A stretch of 64,000 nt of DNA from sequence record NC_041871.1. One strand, written 5' to 3'. The stretch's first letter is position 1. Each line of letters begins with the position of its first letter. Origin of the DNA: Escherichia phage Murica. Positions 11,637-61,015 of this stretch are shown here, in pieces. The notes beneath the pieces were generated by a model. The model had not been told where the DNA came from, made no database searches, and saw only the letters and a program-made list of their open reading frames with translations. The translations under genes were made by a program, and so were the position numbers.

Positions 11637-12725
11637 ATGGCTGTATTTAATGCTGAGAACACCGCTCATAAAACTGGTGACTATCCGCTGTTTCTAGGAC
11701 AGCAAATGGGTATGTATGACTCTATCAACAAAAAATATCCACAACTGTTTGAACTATACAAAAAACAAAAAGAGCAAGATTGGGCAGAGGATGAAGTGGA
11801 TTTGTCGCAATCTATTTCAGATTTTGTAACATGCTCCAAGTCAACTTATGACGTGATGGTGCAGACCTTGATGTGGCAATGGGAGGCTGATAGCGTTGCG
11901 GCAAGATCGATCATCTGCCTCTTTTCACCATTCATCACTAATAGTGAGCTTTTCACTCTATTGATGAAACAGTCAGAGATTGAAGTTCTTCACGCACTAA
12001 CTTACTCAGAGATTGTTAGACAATGCCTCCCAAATGCCCGTGAGATTATAGAAGAGATTCAGGAAAACCAAAACGTTCTGAGCAGATCTGGCGTTATTGT
12101 CAAATACATGCAAGAGCTTGAGGTTATTGGTGCAAAATACCGACTGGATCCTTCTAGTGTTGAAGAAGATATTGTGCGGAAATGCATTCTTAGAGCGCTT
12201 TTTGCACTTTTAGCCCTGGAAAGTATTGAGTTTATTGCAAGTTTTGCATGCACTTTCGCAGTAGCTGAACAGGGTATCTTTGTTCAGGTGGCGCAGCTTG
12301 TTCAAAAAATCATGCTTGACGAAATGCTGCATTCGAAAGGTGATTTTGCCATCATTGATATCCTGCTTAATGATCCCGCATGGGAGAAAAGCTTCCTTGA
12401 GATAAAGGGGGAGTTAAAAGAGATTCTTGATGAAGTACGAACCAAAGAGTACGGTTGGAGTGACTATATTTTCAGCGAAGGAAGAGCGATTATAGGTCTT
12501 AACTCACCGTTGCTTAAAGAATGGGTTGACTATAACTGCTCACCGATTTATGATTACTACGACATCGACAAAGACTTTGTGCCGCCAACAAAGGACCCGC
12601 TACCGTTTATGCAGGTGTGGATGAAACCTTCATTGCAACAGACGGCAAACCAAGAAATGTCGAACACTGACTACCGCGTCAACACAACTGTTAATGACGC
12701 TGAAGAAGAAATTTGGGAGTTTTAA
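11637..12725 (+). CDS. nrdB: ribonucleoside-diphosphate reductase beta subunit
   Basis: Follows nrdA; 362 aa with di-iron carboxylate helices (EVLHALTYSE); GAGGT SD. Confidence 0.85.
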   Translation: MAVFNAENTAHKTGDYPLFLGQQMGMYDSINKKYPQLFELYKKQKEQDWAEDEVDLSQSISDFVTCSKSTYDVMVQTLMWQWEADSVAARSIICLFSPFITNSELFTLLMKQSEIEVLHALTYSEIVRQCLPNAREIIEEIQENQNVLSRSGVIVKYMQELEVIGAKYRLDPSSVEEDIVRKCILRALFALLALESIEFIASFACTFAVAEQGIFVQVAQLVQKIMLDEMLHSKGDFAIIDILLNDPAWEKSFLEIKGELKEILDEVRTKEYGWSDYIFSEGRAIIGLNSPLLKEWVDYNCSPIYDYYDIDKDFVPPTKDPLPFMQVWMKPSLQQTANQEMSNTDYRVNTTVNDAEEEIWEF

Positions 12726-48310: not shown

Positions 48311-48340
48311 ACAAAAATGCCCCACCCTTTCAGGCAGGGC
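48311..48340 (-). terminator. intrinsic terminator (repeated sequence, copy 1)
   Basis: GCCCCACCCTTTCAGGCAGGGC on + strand; on - strand GC stem with G-U pairs then UUUUUG. Confidence 0.5.
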
Positions 48341-48355
48341 TATGTTAACTAAATG

Positions 48356-49582
48356 TTAAAATGGGATGTCATCATCAAAGACGTACTGTGCTGGATTCTG
48401 ATCCATTGGGTCATCTTCCGCATCATTTACAGGAGGAGCGTCTACAGTGTTTTGCTGTGGAGCTGCTTCCTGTTTGGCAGCCTGAGGTTCTTGATGGTCA
48501 GTGGACTCAGCACCGTTCTTGATCCAATCGTACAACGGCTCAGCTAGATTAGTCAAGACATCTTTTGCTTCTGCAGTAATTGCCACTGCAAAATCATCAA
48601 CTTTCGTTTTCTTGTCAATACGGCGACAAGCGTTCAACACCGCATTACCGACACTGGCACCTACTTCATCTTCAGTTCGGTTGGTGGCTTGAGCATACTC
48701 TTTCTTAAGCTCAATGGTGACTACGTGCAGTGTTTTAGCCACGCCCAGTGGGTCGTCTACCTTAAACCCGCGATCCAGGATGATCTGCAACGCATTGATG
48801 CTATGCCCCGTTTCCACACCGATAGGGTCGTAAGAGGATTTACGCTTGCCACCAGAGCCTTGAGTGCCGTTCTCTGCCTTAGGAGGATAGGCCTTGAAAC
48901 CACTGATAATGTTTCCGGTGTCTTTGTCAACAATGGCTGCAACACGACCACCTACCACCAGGTCTTTAAGCTGCTCATCAGTTACAACCATAGCACCTTC
49001 GCCAATCTTGTGGTCATTAACAGTAACCACGTTGCCAACAATCTGAGTCACATCACCATAGATGCGTAAAACGTCCTGATTGGCATTCTGCTGAGGTTTC
49101 TGCTTCTGGCCTTGTGATTGTGCACCTTGTTGCTGTTTTTGCTGCTGAGTCGCTGCTGGAGCCTCTCCTGCACCCAGCTTGACCATCTTAGCCAGTGAGC
49201 CTTTGTAATAGGTCTTACCGTTATGCTCGTTTGCCTTCAAAGGAATATTTACGATCCATCCCGGCGTTACGGTTTCCCACTTGTCATCAATTTTAACAGA
49301 GACAGAGTCTTGATGACCAGGTTTAAGCAGCTTATCACCCATGCTGATCCAAACTTCTTCACCACCTTGAAGCAGGTTATCAGAGGAATCCAGTTCAGAA
49401 ATCAGTAAAGAGATGGTGTGGCTGGATTCAATTTTCTTACCTTGCCACACAGTGGTTTTAATACCTGTTGTAGGATCAGCACCTTTGATAGGCTTGATGC
49501 TGACACGTTTAATCATGCCGTGAGCCAGTAAAACAGTTTCACGCGGATTCATCGGGTTAGCGAATTGTTGAATAACGCTCAT
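48356..49582 (-). CDS. SSB-like protein with bacterial SSB-type acidic C-terminal tail
   Basis: C-terminus ...YVFDDDIPF identical in form to E. coli SSB DDDIPF; Gln/Gly-rich linker; next to replisome genes. Confidence 0.5.
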   Translation of the reverse strand: MSVIQQFANPMNPRETVLLAHGMIKRVSIKPIKGADPTTGIKTTVWQGKKIESSHTISLLISELDSSDNLLQGGEEVWISMGDKLLKPGHQDSVSVKIDDKWETVTPGWIVNIPLKANEHNGKTYYKGSLAKMVKLGAGEAPAATQQQKQQQGAQSQGQKQKPQQNANQDVLRIYGDVTQIVGNVVTVNDHKIGEGAMVVTDEQLKDLVVGGRVAAIVDKDTGNIISGFKAYPPKAENGTQGSGGKRKSSYDPIGVETGHSINALQIILDRGFKVDDPLGVAKTLHVVTIELKKEYAQATNRTEDEVGASVGNAVLNACRRIDKKTKVDDFAVAITAEAKDVLTNLAEPLYDWIKNGAESTDHQEPQAAKQEAAPQQNTVDAPPVNDAEDDPMDQNPAQYVFDDDIPF

Positions 49583-49947
49583 TATTTGTCTCCTTGTTCT
49601 TCGTTAGTGTTTGCCGTGTGTGCAAACCCTGCTTGAATTAATTTGTCCTGAACTTGAGCCAACAGCCCCATTGCAAAACTTGTGGTCCCAGAGAGGGCCA
49701 TCAGCATATCTCGTTGTTGAGCTACCCAACCTAAGGCATAGTCCAAACGACGATATTTTTCTTCTTCACGCAGAGCTTGAAATAATTGTTCAGCCTCTGG
49801 TTGTTGTGTGAGCTCCTGAAGTCTTCCCATGAAAGAAGAAAGCACTAGTAGAAGAGACACTTGATCTTTACTTAACCCTAAGAAAAATTCTTGAGGTTGT
49901 TCTTGCTCGTTCATCGCAACCGACGCTTGATCGTTCATTTGTTCCAT
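49582..49947 (-). CDS. hypothetical protein
   Basis: 121 codons. Confidence 0.45.
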   Translation of the reverse strand: MEQMNDQASVAMNEQEQPQEFFLGLSKDQVSLLLVLSSFMGRLQELTQQPEAEQLFQALREEEKYRRLDYALGWVAQQRDMLMALSGTTSFAMGLLAQVQDKLIQAGFAHTANTNEEQGDK

Positions 49948-50030
49948 TATGGAATCTCCGATTTTATTTGAACAACATAGAAGGAGACACTATTTTAGCA
50001 TCCCCTTCTGCAAATTACAATAGGTATTTG

Positions 50031-50276
50031 TTAGCCAATCACTTCGAAAGTTCCCCAATTCCCGTCCAGCAGGCAGGTGATCGGATCCCCATCGTCGTCA
50101 AAGATTTCAAAGTTTTCAGCATCCAGGATGTGGCCCTCGAACACAATACTTTCGTCGCCACCACCAGAAATAACAGCGTATTCCTTACCTTGAGTCAAGT
50201 TTTGACACCCTTTGCCACCAAAACCTACTTCAACACAACGTACTTTCTGTCCTGCGCGAGCAACTACTTCAGTCAT
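50031..50276 (-). CDS. hypothetical protein
   Basis: 81 codons. Confidence 0.45.
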   Translation of the reverse strand: MTEVVARAGQKVRCVEVGFGGKGCQNLTQGKEYAVISGGGDESIVFEGHILDAENFEIFDDDGDPITCLLDGNWGTFEVIG

Positions 50277-50293
50277 CTTAAGGTCTCCTGATA

Positions 50294-50596
50294 TTAATCG
50301 TCAAGTTCAAAATAGATTTTAACAGCTTCATCAAAGATTGGAATCCCAATGTTGTTGATAAGCTGCCAAACTACCATATCTTTACCTGGATCTGGGAGAA
50401 TGTCAACCTTTCTCCATGCGCTGTATATCCAGTTCGGACCACCTTCTGCACTAACTGGCAGATTTTCACCAGCCTCCTGCAGATACTTATACAGCAAAAG
50501 ATATTCTGGATACTCTAGAACACTGTCCTCTGTAGTATATAGCAGTTCACGGTATACTTTTAAGAACCCTGCTGGGGTAATGTTTTCAGTCTTCAT
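50294..50596 (-). CDS. hypothetical protein
   Basis: ATG after GGAGAAG; track start 50614. Confidence 0.45.
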   Translation of the reverse strand: MKTENITPAGFLKVYRELLYTTEDSVLEYPEYLLLYKYLQEAGENLPVSAEGGPNWIYSAWRKVDILPDPGKDMVVWQLINNIGIPIFDEAVKIYFELDD

Positions 50597-50978
50597 TTGC
50601 CGCTTCTCCTGCATTCATCAGGTCTGCCATAGCGTCACCTACGAAGAGAACAACCACATCGTTGACAGCGTCAGCATCATCTTTATTGACGTTGCTGAAT
50701 TTAGGACACACCGCAATGATCATATAGACACCGTTACCAACCTGAACTGTCCGTGTGGTGCACATCATGGCGGTATTTGTGCCTTCTTTGAAGGCGAAGC
50801 CTTGAAGACGCTCCTCTAAAGTGTTACCGGTAGATTTCAGAAGCGCCAGCTCGTCCAAGGCATAGATGATATCTCCGGAAGTTAGTGTTGCCTTTCCATC
50901 AGACACCATAATAACTCCATCAGCACCGTCAAGCTTAGAGGCTTCAAAGATATCAATATCCCAAATATTTTTCATCAC
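50586..50978 (-). CDS. hypothetical protein
   Basis: 130 codons. Confidence 0.45.
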   Translation of the reverse strand: MMKNIWDIDIFEASKLDGADGVIMVSDGKATLTSGDIIYALDELALLKSTGNTLEERLQGFAFKEGTNTAMMCTTRTVQVGNGVYMIIAVCPKFSNVNKDDADAVNDVVVLFVGDAMADLMNAGEAANED

Positions 50979-51295
50979 GCTTCCTCGTCGTCTAAAGAGT
51001 TGAAGATTTCACCGAAGTATTCTAAGACTTCTAGCTCCCGTGTGGTGCAGAAAACACAGTCACCGTTGTCATCCTCGATAACGGCCTCTTTACCCAGCAC
51101 ATCTACTTCAAGTTTATCGTTCAACAGGACAGCCCCTGTGTAAACTTTGTCGGCTGTGCAGTCCCGAAAAGCAGAGTCTTTCTCCAGATAGTCTGGCTTA
51201 ACCTTGGCTTTAATTCGTTGGTATTGTTTGGTCATTGCTGTGGTCCCCTTTCGTTTTGATAGGGCCATTATATTAGGCTCCATCACTGTTGTCAA
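50975..51295 (-). CDS. hypothetical protein (paralog of 51299-51553)
   Basis: Shared AFRDCT / AFKDCT and DDNGDCVFCT / DDEGDSVWCT blocks. Confidence 0.5.
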   Translation of the reverse strand: MTTVMEPNIMALSKRKGTTAMTKQYQRIKAKVKPDYLEKDSAFRDCTADKVYTGAVLLNDKLEVDVLGKEAVIEDDNGDCVFCTTRELEVLEYFGEIFNSLDDEEA

Positions 51296-51298
51296 GTA

Positions 51299-51553
51299 TT
51301 AATGTTCAGGTTTTACAAAAACTACTTCATTAACAGTGCACCAGACAGAGTCTCCTTCATCATCTTTAAAGGTAAGGCACTGTGCTGAGTTTTCCAGCTC
51401 ATCGATCTCTTCTTGTGATAAAGGGGCCCCTTCTTCCAGGAGGGCTTTTACCAGAGGGTTCTCACAAAACTCTGCTTCATAAATTGCACCGACTGTGCAA
51501 TCTTTAAAAGCTCGGTCATTTGCAACGCATTCTGACTTCAAAGTAATTTTCAT
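51299..51553 (-). CDS. hypothetical protein (paralog of 50975-51295)
   Basis: See paralog. Confidence 0.5.
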   Translation of the reverse strand: MKITLKSECVANDRAFKDCTVGAIYEAEFCENPLVKALLEEGAPLSQEEIDELENSAQCLTFKDDEGDSVWCTVNEVVFVKPEH

Positions 51554-51629
51554 CTTAGCAGTCTCCTTAGTTATTTAAAAATCAACACTCTGTTTGTGCG
51601 AAGCATCTTATATCTAATCTTACTTCTTG

Positions 51630-52001
51630 TCAATGGCTATTTTCAATCAGCCACACAGGGTCTAGGTAAATTTGTTGGCGTGTTGCCCAATGACAAACTT
51701 CATTGTACATCTGAATCTCTTTGTCAGTCAGTTCACGAATAGGCTCATCTATACCCTCATTTTTGTGGTAATCCCAGTCGGCATCGATTTCCCACAACCA
51801 TGACTTGTTGTCACCACGCTTACGCACACAGAAGTCACCGGGACGGCCTGCCAATGCATTTAAGAACTCGTTCTCCGCTCGCTCCTGAAGAATACTAAGG
51901 AGCAAAACGTTGGAGCATGACCGTAAAATATGCTTCAGCTCACAATCATCAATCTCAACTTCAATACGTTGTTTGACTGTGTGGGTACCTTTTACTAACA
52001 T
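51630..52001 (-). CDS. hypothetical protein
   Basis: ATG after AGGAGGT; track start 52028 lacks SD. Confidence 0.45.
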   Translation of the reverse strand: MLVKGTHTVKQRIEVEIDDCELKHILRSCSNVLLLSILQERAENEFLNALAGRPGDFCVRKRGDNKSWLWEIDADWDYHKNEGIDEPIRELTDKEIQMYNEVCHWATRQQIYLDPVWLIENSH

Positions 52002-52011
52002 CCTACCTCCT

Positions 52012-52206
52012 CTAAACGAACTCTGCAAGAGTTGTGTTGTTCACTGCACCGCAGTAAATGGAGTATCCCAGCCCATTAGAGTGCAGAAACCACGGCGTGC
52101 CGAAATTATCTTTCACGTAGACATCACCGTTGTTTGTAAAGGGCCAATATTCTTCCCCAAGGGTAAAATACCTATTCATACCTTCAGCAAGATACTTTAC
52201 TTTCAT
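52012..52206 (-). CDS. hypothetical protein
   Basis: 64 codons, coupled start. Confidence 0.45.
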   Translation of the reverse strand: MKVKYLAEGMNRYFTLGEEYWPFTNNGDVYVKDNFGTPWFLHSNGLGYSIYCGAVNNTTLAEFV

Positions 52207-52430
52207 AGGTCCTCTTCAACAACTACAAACTTGGCAAGCAAAGTGGTTCCGTAGATATGATACTCACCGTTTGCCAGGTGAGAGATATACCAGGCAACCC
52301 CTTCCTCGTCTTTAATCATTTTGTTTGCACGAGCTTTATCGTAATAAACCTCGTAGGTCTTTCCTTCTTTAAAGAAGGACAGGTCTGTCATCTTTTCTTC
52401 TACAAAAGTAGCTTTAACCAAAGTTGTCAT
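52203..52430 (-). CDS. hypothetical protein
   Basis: 75 codons, ATGA coupling. Confidence 0.45.
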   Translation of the reverse strand: MTTLVKATFVEEKMTDLSFFKEGKTYEVYYDKARANKMIKDEEGVAWYISHLANGEYHIYGTTLLAKFVVVEEDL

Positions 52431-52711
52431 TGATCGGTCTCCTTCTTGTTAAGTCTGAATACTGCAATAATAGCATTCCCAAGGTGCAGTGTCAAATCAT
52501 TTCCAAGATACCACAACATTCCACGGTCATCTTTAATGAAAGGGTAACAATCTGGTGCCTTCCAGACATTGTACACTTTCCCAACCTGAAAGAAATCAGG
52601 CCCTGTTGGGATTTTGGTGCCAGGCCACACTTGAGATACCTGAACACACTCCACCTGCATAATAACAGGGATAGTCATAGATGTAAATGTTTTTGTTGGT
52701 TCTACTACCAT
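52427..52711 (-). CDS. hypothetical protein
   Basis: ATG after AAGAGGGGA just past polymerase stop; track start 52801 overlaps polymerase. Confidence 0.45.
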   Translation of the reverse strand: MVVEPTKTFTSMTIPVIMQVECVQVSQVWPGTKIPTGPDFFQVGKVYNVWKAPDCYPFIKDDRGMLWYLGNDLTLHLGNAIIAVFRLNKKETDQ

Positions 52712-52760
52712 AAAAATCCCCTCTTTGCTCAACAGCACCTCCCTGTGCTGATAGTTTACA

Positions 52761-55538
52761 TTAGTGACAATCACCCCAGTTCCGACCACACAAGTATTCA
52801 CCTGTGATCTGGAATGGAACGCCCATCATTTTAGAAGCTTGCCAGAAGCAATGCACCACCATTTCACCCACAGGGCTCCAGATAAGTTCAAGCTTTCCGT
52901 CATCGTTCAGGATAGGATCGTACACCGTGTTTCCGTCTCTGTCAACCACTTCGTTTCCGTTTTCATCCTTGCGTGCCTTTTTGTACTTATGACCGTCAAA
53001 CACATGAAGTTTGGCCTCCTGCTCTGCCTTAAATGCTTCCAATTCTTCAATTGTGTCGAAGGTGTACACAGTCTTATACTTAGGCGTGTCAGGGACCTGA
53101 AGTTGGTACTCATCATGGTAATAAATAATACGACGAACACCTTCATCGTACCACCCACGCTTCACCATTTGGTGGTGCATGAGTATCCCAACTAAGTCAC
53201 ACAACGATGCACCACCATTTTGTTGGTATGCATTAAGTAAAGAGTGTTTAGATCGGGTCCAGATAGCATGACCATCAAAAGAGTAGATAAACTTCTTACC
53301 CGTTGCTTCCCAGAATTTCTCCAGATCCTCTTTACGCCCTTTAAGACCAGGGTTGGCATCCCAAAGCGCATCGATTACCCTTTGCCCCAACTCTGGGGAG
53401 ATATCCAGCATGTCTGCAACTTTATCTTTTTGTGCCCCATACATAACCCCGTACGTGATAGGTTTACCGTCGTTACGAGACACCTCTCTACCTGCTACTT
53501 TCGTATATGCCTCAGCATTGTTTTGGTGGGCATCCCCGTTACTTACAACATCGTAATACAGGCCGTTGTCGAACTCAAAGGCACCCCAAGCCCCGATAAG
53601 CTGCTCTAAGTTGGACCCGTCAATACCGATCTCAAAGTATCCTGGAGGAACACCCCACAGACTGCGCATCTCTTTACCCATAACCACTTTAGGAGATGGT
53701 TTAGGCATGTTTGCACAAATACTGTGTTTCTGTCGGGAAGTGTTTGTTAATCCAGAACTTTTAGCAGGAAGCTTATGGTCAATCTTCAAACGTGGGTGAT
53801 TAAGAAGACCAGTATCAACCTTATCCTCCTTGATTGGATCAAGGACCGATCTGCGGTTTCGCAATGATAACCACAAGACAATATCTTTAGCCATCTCTCC
53901 GTTCAATTTTTCAAGATTTGGGCATAGGTGTCCAAACGTATCTTTCAGCTGCGGAGAAGTAATAAGTGCTCTGGCTTTTCTACGTATTTTCCCGAATACT
54001 TCCTTTTTAATCCTTTCGGAGTTAGGAAAGCTTCGGAACTTGTGCACGGTTGTCTGAAACTTAGCATCAGTTTTGTTCCAGAAGTTGATAATCAGGTCAC
54101 AATACTCTGACTCTAAAAGCTCGTCCATGTATGCATATACTCGTGCATCAACATCTGCATCAGGTAGAGCTTTCTTCTTGCTGTCTTTAGTTACATCCTT
54201 AGTTCTCCACATTGTCGGAAGCCAACCAGCACTGATCAGGTATCGCTTAATGTCGTCCTGATTGCTGATTTTCATAGGTATCTTGCAGTCCGGCATTCGC
54301 TTCTGCTGTAGATCACTTATTGCCTGATCCATCAGCTCTTTAGGTAAAGGTTGTGGTGTGGAAGTGCCCTTAATATAGCCTCTCAAGAAATCAGCCATCT
54401 TATCAGGGTCTTTGCAGCCCATCTCTTCACACCATTTTATCCCCATCTTGCTGACATCTCCTGTGGAGGTAAATGCTCGCTTAGGCGGGGCTTTGAACTC
54501 CAAAGCACTCATGTCCACAGGATAGCCAAGCTTATCTTTTAACCATTTCCAACCATTGTTGGAGATTGTCCCATCTTGGTTAAACGGCTTTTCAGGGAAC
54601 TTGGGCCGCTGAGACATTGACAGCTCTTTTAAAGGAAGTTGAGGTTCAACACGATCAGCGATTTCTTTCATCCACGCATCGCAACGGTCACGTAAAGCAA
54701 TAGCTCCATCTATGTCGAAGTATACACCCTGACGGGCCTGCAGCTCCATCAGGAAGTGCTGCAGCATGCCTCGGCGTAATGCGTTCTTCCAGGTGATTTT
54801 CTTGAACCCTTTCGGCTTCTCTTTGGCTGGATCGTACATAAAGTTCTGCATGTCAGATTTGCCGTAGAATACACCTTTTGATTCCGCTACCAGCTCTTTC
54901 CAGAGCAGCTCCTGGATGATAACGTCCTCGAATACACGATCCACATACTTCCACAACGGAAGATCGCGCCAGTCATCAATTTGAACTTTCTGGTTACCAA
55001 GGGCGTAGCCCCATGCCATAAGGCCGTGAGGACCAACAGGCTGCATTTTCTTAGTAACCGGGTTGAATACAGAGTCCGGACAACCTTTTGGTAAAGGGCG
55101 ATCAGGCCACAAGATTCTGCTCATCGCCAACGTATCAAACAGGTTAACCTGGTGGTCGTTGATAGTCCCCATGCATTTAGGATCACGGAACATATCAAAA
55201 TGAATACCGGATAATCTTTCCATCAGCATAAAGTCATAACTGTAGCAGTTATGGCAGTTCAAAGCTGTTGGTGACCAGTCGGAATTGCCTGTAAGCCAAC
55301 CTTCCAACTCCGAAAAATCTGCTATGCGAACTTCAAAATCTTTATGAAGAGTTTTCTTTGCCAGAATAAAGTTCTTAGCCTTCTCTATATCCTCTTCGGA
55401 GTAGTGTGTGCGGTCATTTAGAGGAAGGAACAGCATAAAACGGTTCTTATTCAGCTCTTTAAACAGGCCGCAGTGATAATAAAGATCTGGATCTTCCAGC
55501 AAACCGGATGACTCAAAGTCGAACGACCACATGCTCAT
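52761..55538 (-). CDS. family A DNA polymerase with 3'-5' exonuclease domain
   Basis: Exo I FDFESSGL; pol motif A EIGIDGSNLEQL, motif B RNDGKPITYGVMYG, motif C YYHDEYQ; AAGGAGA SD. Confidence 0.85.
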   Translation of the reverse strand: MSMWSFDFESSGLLEDPDLYYHCGLFKELNKNRFMLFLPLNDRTHYSEEDIEKAKNFILAKKTLHKDFEVRIADFSELEGWLTGNSDWSPTALNCHNCYSYDFMLMERLSGIHFDMFRDPKCMGTINDHQVNLFDTLAMSRILWPDRPLPKGCPDSVFNPVTKKMQPVGPHGLMAWGYALGNQKVQIDDWRDLPLWKYVDRVFEDVIIQELLWKELVAESKGVFYGKSDMQNFMYDPAKEKPKGFKKITWKNALRRGMLQHFLMELQARQGVYFDIDGAIALRDRCDAWMKEIADRVEPQLPLKELSMSQRPKFPEKPFNQDGTISNNGWKWLKDKLGYPVDMSALEFKAPPKRAFTSTGDVSKMGIKWCEEMGCKDPDKMADFLRGYIKGTSTPQPLPKELMDQAISDLQQKRMPDCKIPMKISNQDDIKRYLISAGWLPTMWRTKDVTKDSKKKALPDADVDARVYAYMDELLESEYCDLIINFWNKTDAKFQTTVHKFRSFPNSERIKKEVFGKIRRKARALITSPQLKDTFGHLCPNLEKLNGEMAKDIVLWLSLRNRRSVLDPIKEDKVDTGLLNHPRLKIDHKLPAKSSGLTNTSRQKHSICANMPKPSPKVVMGKEMRSLWGVPPGYFEIGIDGSNLEQLIGAWGAFEFDNGLYYDVVSNGDAHQNNAEAYTKVAGREVSRNDGKPITYGVMYGAQKDKVADMLDISPELGQRVIDALWDANPGLKGRKEDLEKFWEATGKKFIYSFDGHAIWTRSKHSLLNAYQQNGGASLCDLVGILMHHQMVKRGWYDEGVRRIIYYHDEYQLQVPDTPKYKTVYTFDTIEELEAFKAEQEAKLHVFDGHKYKKARKDENGNEVVDRDGNTVYDPILNDDGKLELIWSPVGEMVVHCFWQASKMMGVPFQITGEYLCGRNWGDCH

Positions 55539-55596
55539 ATACAGTTCTCCTTAAAGGGGAGGCGGTTGTACTACCCCTCCCACTCTTTGTTAAACA

Positions 55597-57675
55597 TTAA
55601 AAAGGTGTTTCATCATCCTCAAAACCAGGGACCGGATCAGAGGATGGATCATCGTATTGGAGGTCTTCCTGCGTGTCAATAGGCTTGACAGTGGGTGTTA
55701 CAACCTTATCAGCCACAACCTTGCCCATAGGTGTTTCTACAACTGCATGCTCCTGATCCTCAAACATAGCCTGAGGTCTCCAAACAACCTCCCCACCTTC
55801 TCCGTCTGTAAACATCTGCATTTCTTTGTCCCAGTACCAATTACTGGCATCATGGAACTTACCTGTATGCGGATCCATAACTAAAGTGTCAGCAATACCT
55901 AAAGTTTTTGCTGGACGGTTTTTAAGACCTACCAGACGGACACGTCCACGAGAACGATCCACCATTTCTTCGGCCTCGACACCTATGACTACCCAACTCA
56001 ACTGTTCAAGCCCAGCCGATCCTCGCAAATTCTCTTTTCGCACAGGATACCAGAAAGGTAATGGGTTACCATCCTTGTCCTTAGGGGGCACAATCTCTGT
56101 ACGTTTGAGGTGAGCGATCACCAAGATAAACACGTTAAACTGCTTACAAAACGCAGCCAGTTGGGTCATAGCCATGTCCAGTTCTTTTCGCTCATCCTTA
56201 ACATTAAGCCCTGAAATTACCATGGACAGGTGATCCAGCACAATATAACGACAATGGTACAGGCAAACCATTTGCTTAAGCTTGGTAATCAACTCGTCCA
56301 CTGGAATAGACCCGAAATGTTTGAACACTTTGATTTTTCCAGCTTTTGCCCATGATTGGTGAATCTCTGCGTGTTCTTGATCAGTTAAAAACTGGCTAGG
56401 ATCTTCAACAAACTCTTTAACATCAAACCCTAACTGGTTTGCATACAAGGAGTTAATTGCTTCCTCTGGGTCCTCCTCAAGATGAATCATGCATAGACGA
56501 TCATCCTCTTCATAGTCATCGGCCTTCGGGCATGTCGGGTCCATTAGGTATCTTGCAATACAGTGTTCCAGTTTTTTAGCCACGGTTGTTTTACCGCCGC
56601 CTGATGGACCTGTAAGCATTACAAGTGTCCCTTTGTGCAAGCCTTTTAGCATTTTTTGCAGTTTTGGGAACTCTGCACTGATATCTACCCCGTTGGAAGT
56701 CTTTTTCCGCAAAGACTCGATAGAGAAGTCTTCTAAATCCGACACAGCATCAGGCACATATTTAACAGGGTGCCGGAACATGTTGACAATATCTTCCAGC
56801 TTTTTAGCCTTCAGCATGTCTCGGATATCTTTTACACCGTCAGGGTCATTTACTTCACCAGGGTATTCTACGTGGTAAACGTTATCAGCCATCAAAAATG
56901 CTGCGATATTGTGCGTGGCCTCAACACCTTTAATGACGTGTTTTTGCTTCTCTACCTCGTTAGCTGCATCGTTATCCATTGCCAGCACAACTGTTCCATA
57001 GCTACGGATAAACTTCTCATTGTTTGCAAAAGTATCTACTGCGTTTGCACATCCACAGTTAATTCCAACAAAAGGCAGGCAGGGTTTTCCTGCCAGATCA
57101 CCACCGTTGATAACTGCGTCGATCCCGTCCTGGACCTCTTTAGCCCACTGCTTCACCTTTGCCGGGGCTTTAGCGTTGGTGAGAATCCCTTTTACTTGTA
57201 TCTGATATGCAGCCTGCCATGCTGCAATAACATCACCTTCTCCCTCACAAACGTTAATCTGCTTACGGTTGTTGGAAGATGCACACAGCTTTTGACCAAA
57301 CATCTGGGAGTTGGCCTTTACGATGCCAACAACGGAGAAATGGCCCCTTTGCTCTTTAGGAATAGTCCAGTCACGCTTTTTGAAACCAGACAGATTTCCG
57401 TAGCGGTCGTAATATGGGAAATATGTTGCAGTGACTGTCACACCGTCTTCTTGGGACAATGCTGATCGCACACCAAAATATTGTGCAGCCATCAGACCGA
57501 TATTTTGTTGTGGGACAGGGACAATTTTAGTATTTTCTAAAACAGTCTCTACAGTTTCAACTTCTTTTTCATCACGATAGTCTCGTTTCACACTTCCCCC
57601 ACTTTTATACTTAGTTGCTTTCGGGTTTGGCTCACCGAAACGGTTGTATGCAGATGCCATAAATTTACTTCCCAT
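55597..57675 (-). CDS. primase-helicase (TOPRIM + DnaB/gp4-type helicase)
   Basis: TOPRIM VCEGEGDVIAAW and LAMDNDAANE; Walker A LTGPSGGGKTT; Walker B YIVLDHLSM; C-terminal acidic tail ending EDDETPF; no N-terminal zinc finger. Confidence 0.8.
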   Translation of the reverse strand: MGSKFMASAYNRFGEPNPKATKYKSGGSVKRDYRDEKEVETVETVLENTKIVPVPQQNIGLMAAQYFGVRSALSQEDGVTVTATYFPYYDRYGNLSGFKKRDWTIPKEQRGHFSVVGIVKANSQMFGQKLCASSNNRKQINVCEGEGDVIAAWQAAYQIQVKGILTNAKAPAKVKQWAKEVQDGIDAVINGGDLAGKPCLPFVGINCGCANAVDTFANNEKFIRSYGTVVLAMDNDAANEVEKQKHVIKGVEATHNIAAFLMADNVYHVEYPGEVNDPDGVKDIRDMLKAKKLEDIVNMFRHPVKYVPDAVSDLEDFSIESLRKKTSNGVDISAEFPKLQKMLKGLHKGTLVMLTGPSGGGKTTVAKKLEHCIARYLMDPTCPKADDYEEDDRLCMIHLEEDPEEAINSLYANQLGFDVKEFVEDPSQFLTDQEHAEIHQSWAKAGKIKVFKHFGSIPVDELITKLKQMVCLYHCRYIVLDHLSMVISGLNVKDERKELDMAMTQLAAFCKQFNVFILVIAHLKRTEIVPPKDKDGNPLPFWYPVRKENLRGSAGLEQLSWVVIGVEAEEMVDRSRGRVRLVGLKNRPAKTLGIADTLVMDPHTGKFHDASNWYWDKEMQMFTDGEGGEVVWRPQAMFEDQEHAVVETPMGKVVADKVVTPTVKPIDTQEDLQYDDPSSDPVPGFEDDETPF

Positions 57676-58429
57676 TAATTCTGCTCCTTACTACAGGCTC
57701 GTTTGCTAAGAATACGGCTTTTGCCCAGCCACGTGGTGTGAGGCTTCGGATCATCTTCGTTCTTGCACTCTTTCCACCCAGCTTGGCGTGTTGCATGGAA
57801 TACCCGCTAACCGCGTCAACTATTTGCTGGACAGGTTTTGTGGCCGGGATTATAAATCCATTACCTATCCAGCCGCAAGTTATTTTTGGATAGGCATCAC
57901 GTGGAGCTATAAATTCAGGAAACCAGGGGTTTACATCATCCTCCGGTAAATACCCGCCATAGTCAGAAGGATGAAAACGGTAATCAGGTTTGCGCCACAG
58001 TGTGGACATAACACCAACAGGATTCTCTACATGCCACGGGCAATCGTAAATCTCTCCCAGCTCTTCCGCAACCCGAGCATCCTTTACAGCATTAATTTGG
58101 ATCAAAGGATCCTTAGCCAGCTTTTTCTTAAAATGTGCAGCACCTGATACCGCTAAATGCGTGCACGGAGGAAATGCAAGAACAAAGTCCGGAGCTGGGT
58201 ACATGCAGAAAGTTTCCTGAGGGAACCATGGATCAATCCAATAATCTACATAGTGAATATTTGGATGATCGGTGATCACCTCTGCATAACTGCCGTGGTC
58301 AGCACCTTCTGCGTTAAAGCACAGGCACAGATATCCAGCTTTTGCCCAGTCAATGACTGCACCGCCAGATCCGTCAAATAGACTCCACACAACACCTTTG
58401 TGGTAGTGTTCTTTATAGATAAATTTCAA
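57665..58429 (-). CDS. putative DNA (cytosine-5)-methyltransferase
   Basis: Motif I LFDGSGG, motif IV FPPCTHLAVSG, motif VI HVENPVG; TTG start 7 nt after GGAGA (track GTG 58459 lies in terminator). Confidence 0.6.
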   Translation of the reverse strand: MKFIYKEHYHKGVVWSLFDGSGGAVIDWAKAGYLCLCFNAEGADHGSYAEVITDHPNIHYVDYWIDPWFPQETFCMYPAPDFVLAFPPCTHLAVSGAAHFKKKLAKDPLIQINAVKDARVAEELGEIYDCPWHVENPVGVMSTLWRKPDYRFHPSDYGGYLPEDDVNPWFPEFIAPRDAYPKITCGWIGNGFIIPATKPVQQIVDAVSGYSMQHAKLGGKSARTKMIRSLTPRGWAKAVFLANEPVVRSRINGK

Positions 58430-58445
58430 TTTGCTGTCTCCTAAT

Positions 58446-58474
58446 GCAAAAAGCCCCACCCTTTCGGGCAGGGC
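58446..58474 (-). terminator. intrinsic terminator (repeated sequence, copy 2)
   Basis: GCCCCACCCTTTCGGGCAGGGC, one base different from 48319-48340; U-tract on - strand. Confidence 0.5.
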
Positions 58475-59371: not shown

Positions 59372-59715
59372 CAGAAACCTCCCACTTCTTCAGCAAATGC
59401 AGCTGCTGTCGTCGCTGCATCCAGATAGGACTCTAGTTCACGGGCTGCACGTTTGTAAATTGAGTGGCGCATATCGTTTGGCAATTGGTGGAAGTCCACC
59501 TCTTCACCGTTGTGGTAAACATGCACATCGGTAATTTGTCTAAATCCGTAATAGTCAACATCAGAATCACGGCACTCTGGGTCTGGCAACTGGACAACTG
59601 CCTGAGCTTCCACAGTGAACATATCGTCAAGTTCGAAATCGATTTCAAAAGTGTATGGTTTATAACATTTCATCATTTGATTGTACTCTTTATTGATCAG
59701 ACTTATCTTTCGCAA
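59371..59715 (-). CDS. hypothetical protein
   Basis: 114 codons. Confidence 0.5.
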   Translation of the reverse strand: MRKISLINKEYNQMMKCYKPYTFEIDFELDDMFTVEAQAVVQLPDPECRDSDVDYYGFRQITDVHVYHNGEEVDFHQLPNDMRHSIYKRAARELESYLDAATTAAAFAEEVGGF

Positions 59716-61015
59716 TTAAGGTCGGGGCAAGTTTGTAATAACGGAAGCCACCACCACCTTGCCAGTTTACAGACTTAGAAATACCACCTTGATCTTCACC
59801 ATCGATCACTTTTTCCAAGCGCGGAATAATATGGGTATGACAATGATCACCTAGCTCGATTGAGATCCAACGTCTTTTCATCTTGTGAGCTACAGCAGCA
59901 GTAGTTCCCGAACCACCGAATGAATCCAATACCAAATCGCCTTCTCGCGTACACATTTCGAAAATTCGCTTCAAAAGCGCTTCTGGTTTTTTCCCATTTT
60001 TGAAACTAACGCCGCCTTCATTTGCTATTCCATTCCAACTAATGTCTGTCCAAACATCAGTTATTAGTTCCGCAGGTTGCATATCACCGTCAATTTCCAA
60101 AAGCCTGTTGGAGTAAAAGACCATTTGCCTACCATTTACGATATAAAATCCTTCAACATCTTCATTTGGATGTACATAAACCTTATCCCTATCTTTCTTT
60201 GACTTCTCGATAGTTTCTTTTCTCTTTATTTTAGCACCACCGCCGATTGCAACAGATTGAAATACACGTTCTGCATTATCAATTGCGAATTGTGCTAATT
60301 CATCATCGAATGTATCAGGCAGTTTTTTCTTGGCCTCTTTTGCATCTTTATAGCCATTGGCCTTTGCAAACGCATCGGCAATACCGCACCACGTCCAATT
60401 TTTATAATGGTCATCCGGGTTTAATAGGTATTTGTTATATCCTGTATCATACCCTTTAGGTATATAGATTTTGTTAAGCGGTTTCTGGGTGCGATCTTTT
60501 GCATATACAAGCAAAAAGTTTGCTGTGGAGAAAACTGTGGCTCCTGTTGCCTTAAATCCCGAAGGGGAATTTGTGGTCATCGATATGGTATTTAACTGAT
60601 TTGCACGACCAAAAATCTCGTCCATCAAAACTTTTAAATACGCCATTTCGCAATCATCTAAGTGAACGAATATTACCCCATCATCACTTAGAAGATTACG
60701 AATTATTTCTAACCTATCCCTCATTAAGCCCAGCCAAATGGAATGCTCAAGGCTATCATCGTAGTGCTCAAAAGCCCTTCCAGTATTGAATGGTGGGTCT
60801 ATGTAAACACACTTCACTTTGCCTGCATACTCTTGCTCTAGCGCCTTCAATGCTAATAAGTTATCTCCAAAAATCAGTTTATTATCAAAAATATCGTTTT
60901 CAGTCACTTTCTGGCTGTGGTAAGACTTGCTAGAATCTTCTAACAAAATGTGCGGCTCTAACTTTTTGCGCTCGTTTTTACCTATCCAGGTTAGTTCTAA
61001 TTTGGTTTTACTCAT
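59690..61015 (-). CDS. DNA N4/N6 methyltransferase, type III Mod-like
   Basis: YIDPPFNTG (motif IV) precedes FGGSGTT (motif I); N-terminal ELTWIGK; AAGGAGAG SD. Confidence 0.75.
   Translation of the reverse strand: MSKTKLELTWIGKNERKKLEPHILLEDSSKSYHSQKVTENDIFDNKLIFGDNLLALKALEQEYAGKVKCVYIDPPFNTGRAFEHYDDSLEHSIWLGLMRDRLEIIRNLLSDDGVIFVHLDDCEMAYLKVLMDEIFGRANQLNTISMTTNSPSGFKATGATVFSTANFLLVYAKDRTQKPLNKIYIPKGYDTGYNKYLLNPDDHYKNWTWCGIADAFAKANGYKDAKEAKKKLPDTFDDELAQFAIDNAERVFQSVAIGGGAKIKRKETIEKSKKDRDKVYVHPNEDVEGFYIVNGRQMVFYSNRLLEIDGDMQPAELITDVWTDISWNGIANEGGVSFKNGKKPEALLKRIFEMCTREGDLVLDSFGGSGTTAAVAHKMKRRWISIELGDHCHTHIIPRLEKVIDGEDQGGISKSVNWQGGGGFRYYKLAPTLIAKDKSDQ

Follow-up and report, generated by a model that had tools for sequence, protein, structure and literature searches.

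The SSB (single-stranded DNA-binding) protein of Escherichia coli ends in an acidic tip. The terminal Pro-Phe of this tip enters a hydrophobic pocket on ExoI, RecQ, RecO, chi, and DnaG, and basic residues surround the pocket (PMC3632105, PMC5872125). In T7 phage, the acidic tails of gp2.5 and gp4, in each of which the terminal Phe is essential, bind basic patches of the polymerase, and a DTDF peptide mimicking the gp4 tail is present in PDB entry 6P7E (PMC12339929 and its references). That SSB and helicase can carry acidic tails closed by an aromatic residue is well known. The stretch of DNA analyzed here, 64,000 nucleotides (nt) of Escherichia phage Murica (NC_041871.1) and hereafter called the window, resembles T7 in the composition of its replisome. 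A 408-amino-acid (aa) SSB-like protein and a 692-aa gp4-like primase-helicase each carry an acidic tail with a terminal Phe. With fair probability, the former is the phage's own SSB and the two tails serve for docking in the manner of the SSB C-terminal tip (SSB-Ct) or of T7; considerably less confidence attaches to any single docking partner.

Two acidic tails ending in Pro-Phe

The SSB-like protein (C terminus ...NPAQYVFDDDIPF) and the primase-helicase (C terminus ...PVPGFEDDETPF) are encoded on the minus strand, the coding direction of the genes in this part of the window. A preliminary description of this DNA had claimed an acidic C-terminal tail with Phe as its last residue for both, and this is borne out: no other of the 461 open reading frames (ORFs) of at least 40 aa in the window has PF at its end. 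An aromatic last residue together with at least three Asp or Glu in the last eight positions is found in only two further window ORFs, NrdB among them. In the complete relative JLBYU08, which served for a genome-wide check of tails over 937 ORFs, the annotated genes with an acidic PF tail are only the same two. NrdB, the β subunit of ribonucleotide reductase (11637-12725, plus strand), ends in ...DAEEEIWEF and is the sole other replication-related protein with an acidic-aromatic end; such an R2 tail is of a known type that binds R1.

The tip of the SSB-like protein, FDDDIPF, recurs unchanged as the last 7 residues of E. coli SSB, so the reading of YVFDDDIPF as the form of the bacterial tip held as well. 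In some homologs, which end in EPPMDFDDDIPF, this identity extends over 12 residues. The two tails of the phage share their last two residues, as do the two tails of T7, with PF here and DF in T7. One position is consistently different between the two families: −3 is occupied by Ile, Val, or Leu in the SSB-like proteins versus Thr, Ser, Cys, or Glu in the helicases.

Both tails are conserved far beyond the closest relatives. A word-indexed search yielded 56 homologs of the SSB-like protein, every full-length one of which features [FWY]-D-[DE]-[DSEQ]-[IVL]-P-F at or near its end, and in an alignment of 30 sequences reaching down to 28% identity, Pro-407 and Phe-408 are two of just 11 invariant columns. 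By exhaustive profile search, the family comprises 234 clusters at 50% identity; among the best 147 cluster representatives, 106 end in xPF, 10 carry PF followed by an extension, and 17 bear another acidic-aromatic tip (LDF, LPW, or DVF), the remainder being mostly fragments. On the helicase side, PF follows an acidic run in 112 of 120 homologs over a range down to 42% identity, Vibrio phages included. A chance origin, with two unrelated proteins coincidentally ending in an acidic run and PF, has the shortness of the motif and nothing else in its favor; since both PF-ending window ORFs encode replisome proteins and both families have kept the tail despite deep divergence, its probability is negligible, and we judge it already refuted. 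The tails are real, conserved, and specific to the SSB-like protein and the primase-helicase, and no compositional accident.

Architecture of the SSB-like protein

The AlphaFold model of the SSB-like protein, built from the 30-sequence alignment, features three folded units: a β domain (residues 1-140) with predicted local distance difference test scores (pLDDT) of 82-93, a small β domain (about 170-232, pLDDT about 80), and four helices (about 252-357, pLDDT about 90). Residues 141-169, 236-250, and 363-401 are disordered in the model. The OB fold that had been proposed as a check is predicted in three dimensions for residues 1-140. The protein appears to follow the plan of a bacterial SSB of the PF00436 family, in which a disordered linker connects an OB fold to an acidic D-D-D-[IL]-P-F tip; the roughly 45-residue linker of residues 358-401 is analogous to the intrinsically disordered linker of SSB, and the tip is expected to act as a hydrophobic-pocket docking peptide in both (PMC3632105, PMC5872125). 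Compared with bacterial SSB, the folded part is without detectable PF00436 homology and carries two additional domains, the β insert and the conserved four-helix domain.

Two details of the preliminary description stood only in part. The Gln/Gly-rich linker is present, but it joins the first and second folded domains, whereas the linker ahead of the tip is rich in Pro, Gln, and acidic residues. As for the suggestion of a fusion, the middle β domain does add length and is missing from the common 260-300 aa forms of the family, but the four-helix domain is core to the family: it is its most conserved part, is found in all members, and carries the motifs GxxxGHxxN and VGxxxGNAVLNACRR. Since OB fold, helical domain, linker, and tip are family-wide and one domain is inserted in the rV5 lineage, the protein is no simple SSB fusion. 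When modeled alone (pLDDT 90), the four-helix domain returned no informative structural neighbor.

Sequence comparison points to the tip above all. Neither the single sequence nor the family profile gave a match in Pfam, NCBIfam, PADLOC, or PDB sequences beyond the tail; no Pfam profile, PF00436 included, matched the window protein or any of the 30 homologs, and NCBIfam likewise had no match for the window protein. The match of the family profile to PDB sequences lies solely at the E. coli SSB tail (...SNEPPMDFDDDIPF), and hhalign against E. coli SSB aligns the last 15 residues and nothing else, with a probability of 94%. Foldseek against viral models (BFVD) recovers family members and, weakly, DUF2815/gp2.5-type and "helix destabilizing" proteins (E about 0.01-0.09) and other phage SSBs. 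In a profile comparison with a phrog_44 SSB, the last OB hairpin aligns weakly, EHNGKTYY versus EHNGKVYI, with a probability of 51%. Compared with T7, there is no detectable homology to gp2.5 beyond the weak BFVD matches, whereas the acidic tail with its terminal Phe is shared. PHROG family 4477 is labeled "unknown function", and a few GenBank records already name the 408-aa gene SSB.

Taken as modeled, the 408-aa protein is probably a non-canonical phage SSB of a distinct family. A canonical SSB is absent from a complete Vequintavirus genome, both by annotation and by tblastn with an E. coli SSB query, the tail of which was verified against the PDB match. Another job at the fork for the OB and four-helix domains, such as that of a recombination mediator or a primosome or loader protein of the RecO or PriB type, with the tip as a mere tether, is improbable: no other SSB candidate is found in the genome, an OB fold with a disordered linker and an SSB tip is SSB architecture, and the same endonuclease family is found downstream of canonical ssb genes and of the SSB-like gene. 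The phage-encoded PF00436 SSBs at two of the related loci (L015, L021) carry the host SSB-Ct motif too, as ...DDDIPF or ...EDDIPF ahead of an extension; these are ordinary proteins of about 160 aa, whereas the window protein belongs to another family.

Directly upstream lies a 121-aa gene that carries no family annotation and is labeled "putative SSB" in JLBYU08 without visible support. A gene of 113-116 aa occupies the same position in three distant relatives (L004, L008, L009).

T7-type partners and proposed docking of the tails

The primase-helicase has T7 gp4 structures as its best PDB sequence matches (E 4e-16). A DnaB/RecA-type hexameric helicase domain is recognized by PF03796 and PF13481, and phrog_239, "DNA primase/helicase", spans residues 18-677. 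For the TOPRIM domain, there is no Pfam Toprim match, and the motifs CEGEGD and DNDAAN were seen by eye. Unlike T7 gp4, the helicase has no Cys4 zinc finger at its N terminus: residues 1-150 have just two Cys, set apart from each other, and lack a CxxC pair. With no Cys4 motif and TOPRIM-like motifs recognized by eye only, primase competence is uncertain. Many helicase homologs (975-1025 aa; P0062-P0064, P0103-P0151) are about 300 aa longer, covering 52-81% of the query, which is consistent with an intein or other insertion in the helicase domain.

Among solved structures, those of T7 gp5 come closest to the 925-aa polymerase (E 7e-16). In the alignment with gp5, KK stands opposite R590/R591 of the front basic patch, and K587/K589 fall within a T7-only insertion; as judged from this alignment, the patch is partly conserved here, and no more. 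The polymerase gene of JLBYU08 (L001, 7763-10869) is annotated as two coding sequences about 320 nt apart, versus one ORF in the window, which suggests an insertion polymorphism inside the gene.

In the mechanism considered here, both tails would be flexible docking peptides. A tail would be guided by its acidic residues to a basic surface and would insert its Pro-Phe end, carboxylate included, into a hydrophobic pocket, as E. coli SSB-Ct does on its partners and the T7 gp2.5 and gp4 tails do on T7 polymerase. The likeliest receptors would be T7-like replisome proteins of the phage itself, with the family A polymerase first among them; the tails may thereby couple SSB, helicase, and polymerase at the fork. 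We infer the binding of single-stranded DNA (ssDNA), the docking mechanism, and the identity of the receptor alike. The T7-style docking on replisome partners that the preliminary description had put forward is plausible because T7 gp4 and gp5 are the closest solved structures to helicase and polymerase, and the recruitment of host SSB clients, which it had also raised, is likewise plausible given the identity of the tip.

A stronger form of the latter, in which FDDDIPF mainly binds host SSB clients (Pol III chi, PriA, RecQ, ExoI, RNase HI, DnaG, and others), which are recruited to phage ssDNA or titrated from host SSB, with the helicase tail acting likewise but more weakly, seems unlikely as a whole. 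It would account for the 7 residues here, and 12 in some homologs, that are identical to the host SSB tip, SSB-Ct being the universal handle for host clients (PMC5872125, PMC3632105). Yet nearly all bacteria have this tip motif, which makes identity with the host non-discriminating, and the helicase tip deviates from the SSB-Ct consensus at position −3. In addition, the phage encodes its own replication set of polymerase, primase-helicase, RNase H, exonuclease, ligase, and second helicase and would have less need of host clients. The two explanations do not exclude each other: the tip, being identical to that of the host, can probably engage host SSB-client proteins too.

Self-regulation is more improbable still. 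By folding onto the DNA-binding surfaces of their own proteins, namely the OB cleft and the helicase channel, the acidic tails would adjust the affinity and cooperativity of ssDNA binding, with docking being secondary. Such a role is described for T7 gp2.5, T4 gp32, and E. coli SSB, a competition between tail and cleft has its precedent in T7 gp2.5 (PMC12339929), and the long disordered acidic linker ahead of the SSB-like tip would suit it. However, purely electrostatic autoinhibition would need no invariant terminal Pro-Phe across homologs of 28-40% identity.

Table 1. Features of the SSB-like and primase-helicase genes in the window, and related loci with an endonuclease cassette or a C-terminal extension
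Feature	Position	Strand	Remarks
SSB-like gene, 408 aa	48356-49582	-	phrog_4477; homolog of rV5 gp209
Predicted OB-fold domain, residues 1-140	49163-49582	-	candidate ssDNA-binding domain
Gln/Gly-rich disordered inter-domain linker, residues 141-169	49076-49162	-	pLDDT 25-34
Small β domain, residues 170-235	48878-49075	-	insertion missing from 260-300 aa members
Conserved four-helix domain, residues 251-357	48512-48832	-	invariant G255, G259, H260, N263, G312, L316
Pro/Gln/acid-rich disordered linker before tip, residues 358-401	48380-48511	-	pLDDT <50 for 363-401
SSB-like tip FDDDIPF, residues 402-408	48359-48379	-	stop codon 48356-48358
Terminator-like hairpin just after SSB-like gene	48319-48340	-	
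121-aa gene, function unknown	49582-49947	-	phrog_7310; stop overlaps SSB-like start (ATGA)
Family A DNA polymerase, 925 aa	52761-55538	-	closest solved relative T7 gp5; candidate tail receptor
gp4-like primase-helicase, 692 aa	55597-57675	-	
Primase-helicase tail GFEDDETPF, residues 684-692	55600-55626	-	acidic with terminal Pro-Phe; stop codon 55597-55599
Cassette loci	L002 (3357-4020), L104 (1560-2244), L003 (2930-3425), L009, L019, L021		after SSB-like, gp4-like helicase, and canonical ssb genes
Extension-bearing set	L002, L003, L004, L008, L009, L010, L011-L023, L036, L046, L065		proteins P0177-P0289

The window region of about 10 kb that holds these genes is 98-99% identical to Vequintavirus (rV5-like) coliphages such as nomo, pangalan, and JLBYU08, with 124 matching phage records. 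A Dcm-like cytosine methyltransferase gene (57665-58459, minus strand) shares 11 nt with the beginning of the primase-helicase gene, and just upstream of it lies an N6-adenine methyltransferase gene (59690-61015, minus strand). At about 30 kb of the window, the GC skew switches sign, positive before and negative after, which fits the change from plus-strand to minus-strand genes.

Endonuclease cassettes at the tip codons of related phages

In 11 SSB-like and two helicase homologs, PF is followed by about 15 extra residues that are nearly alike, AP[IV]GLQY[GA]xxx[IV][YH]x[LI]. The extension goes with an endonuclease cassette that is found at related loci and not in the window, where the equivalent sites are 48356-48361 and 55597-55602. 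In phage DrSchubert and the type phage rV5, the endonuclease gene (rV5 gp208) is inserted precisely behind the Phe codon and ahead of the point where the window allele has its stop, and rV5 gp209 ends in ...DFCDDIPFAPVGLQYGKSRIHAL. More generally, the cassette of the cassette-bearing relatives sits between the Phe codon and the sequence preceding the terminator-like hairpin. It is present in 39 of about 124 Vequintavirus records. The cassette-free allele of the window and the cassette-bearing allele diverge by 27% and 20% in the 30 nt flanking each side, versus 1-4% elsewhere; such a rise at the junctions is typical of the target site of a homing endonuclease. The endonucleases belong to phrog_1035 and phrog_2340 and share a conserved HH..Y..P..W.C..CH..H pattern. 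Precise presence or absence together with junction divergence marks the cassette as a putative free-standing HNH homing endonuclease, for which cleavage is predicted.

The cassette also follows gp4-like helicase genes (L003, L065). A selfish element treats the tails of helicase and SSB as one kind of site, and the helicase tail is therefore independently marked as SSB-Ct-type, at least at the DNA level. IMG/VR holds at least 529 relatives of the endonuclease. Among 72 non-redundant endonuclease loci from this source (L024-L103), 62 have, immediately upstream, a gene with an acidic ...[IVLT]PF tip, compared with 2 of 831 control frames. The tips at these loci end exactly at PF in 38 cases, run on for one residue (PFN or PFS) in 12, and for three or more in the other 12. 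A back-translated pattern retrieved 13 further extension cases from IMG/VR, canonical PF00436 SSBs and a phrog_44 SSB among them; loci L011-L023 come from a pattern that allows synonymous variants only.

Read out of frame, the endonuclease N terminus S-T-x-C-K, with TGT AAG becoming ..TG TAA, largely accounts for the second half of the extension, while the first half, AP[IV]GLQ, has no out-of-frame explanation. Over nine loci, found without reference to the peptide although the search expression for this codon analysis still assumed GLQY, G-L-Q-Y is invariant across 3 Gly, 4 Leu, 2 Gln, and 2 Tyr codons (proportions of synonymous and nonsynonymous differences, pS 0.80 and pN 0.17). A second class of extension ends in ...APIGLQYPxLLxCM. 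In the footprint alleles L004, L008, and L010, the endonuclease is truncated or gone, and the in-frame extension is retained.

Two other origins of the extension were rejected. Read-through into a group I intron does not fit, as the cassette does not end in G and splicing at plausible sites restores no stop; the footprint alleles, which keep the extension and have no room for an intron, also rule it out. Nor is the extension an upstream part of the endonuclease ORF, which has an in-frame stop 12 nt before its ATG and a different frame.

Viable phages, rV5 included, make an SSB-like protein in which Phe is not terminal and is followed by 15 residues; nothing else argues as strongly against the idea that a free tip is strictly required as in T7 or E. 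coli. Either the free tip of the SSB-like protein is dispensable for plaque formation in these phages, or the extension is removed or substitutes for it.

A more far-reaching interpretation, which we put forward tentatively and hold, taken in all its parts, to be possible rather than probable, is that the DNA encoding SSB-Ct-type tips is the homing site of a large HNH endonuclease family and that the capping peptide is an adaptor encoded by the mobile element. The endonuclease genes are located downstream of canonical SSBs, the SSB-like family, gp4-like helicases, and other tip-bearing proteins. The cassettes of enterobacterial phages, that of rV5 included, also bring a 15-17-aa AP[IV]GLQY... 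cap, which would be under purifying selection and might either be removed to regenerate ...PF or rewire the docking of SSB and helicase. The nearest precedent for sequence from a free-standing homing-endonuclease insertion turned functional tail is mobE of Aeromonas phage Aeh1, which splits NrdA and leaves element-derived tails that are required for function (PMC3045599). In contrast to Aeh1, the gene is not split here: the cassette is located at the stop codon, and 15-17 residues are appended to a docking tip. Literature searches returned nothing relevant on the capping peptide, the SSB of rV5, or endonucleases at the 3' ends of ssb genes.

Acidic tails with a terminal Phe organize the replisomes of bacteria and of T7 and are targets of drugs and of defense systems. 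What is new is where they are found: on a large SSB-like family that lacks curation and has a tip identical to that of the host, and, clade-wide as a Pro-Phe tip, on gp4-like helicases. The association of endonuclease and tip, together with the conserved capping peptide, is the more novel part and is partly worked out. A probable SSB function and a docking tip can be assigned to a large phage family whose annotations mostly read "hypothetical", with members in rV5, phi92, phAPEC8, and related phages of therapy use and of the BASEL collection. Sister phages with and without the endonuclease form natural pairs of capped and uncapped tips and are ready material on tip function. If the tentative interpretation of the cassette is true, the "tip code" would be a shared, exchangeable module of phage replisomes that is exploited and repaired by selfish elements.

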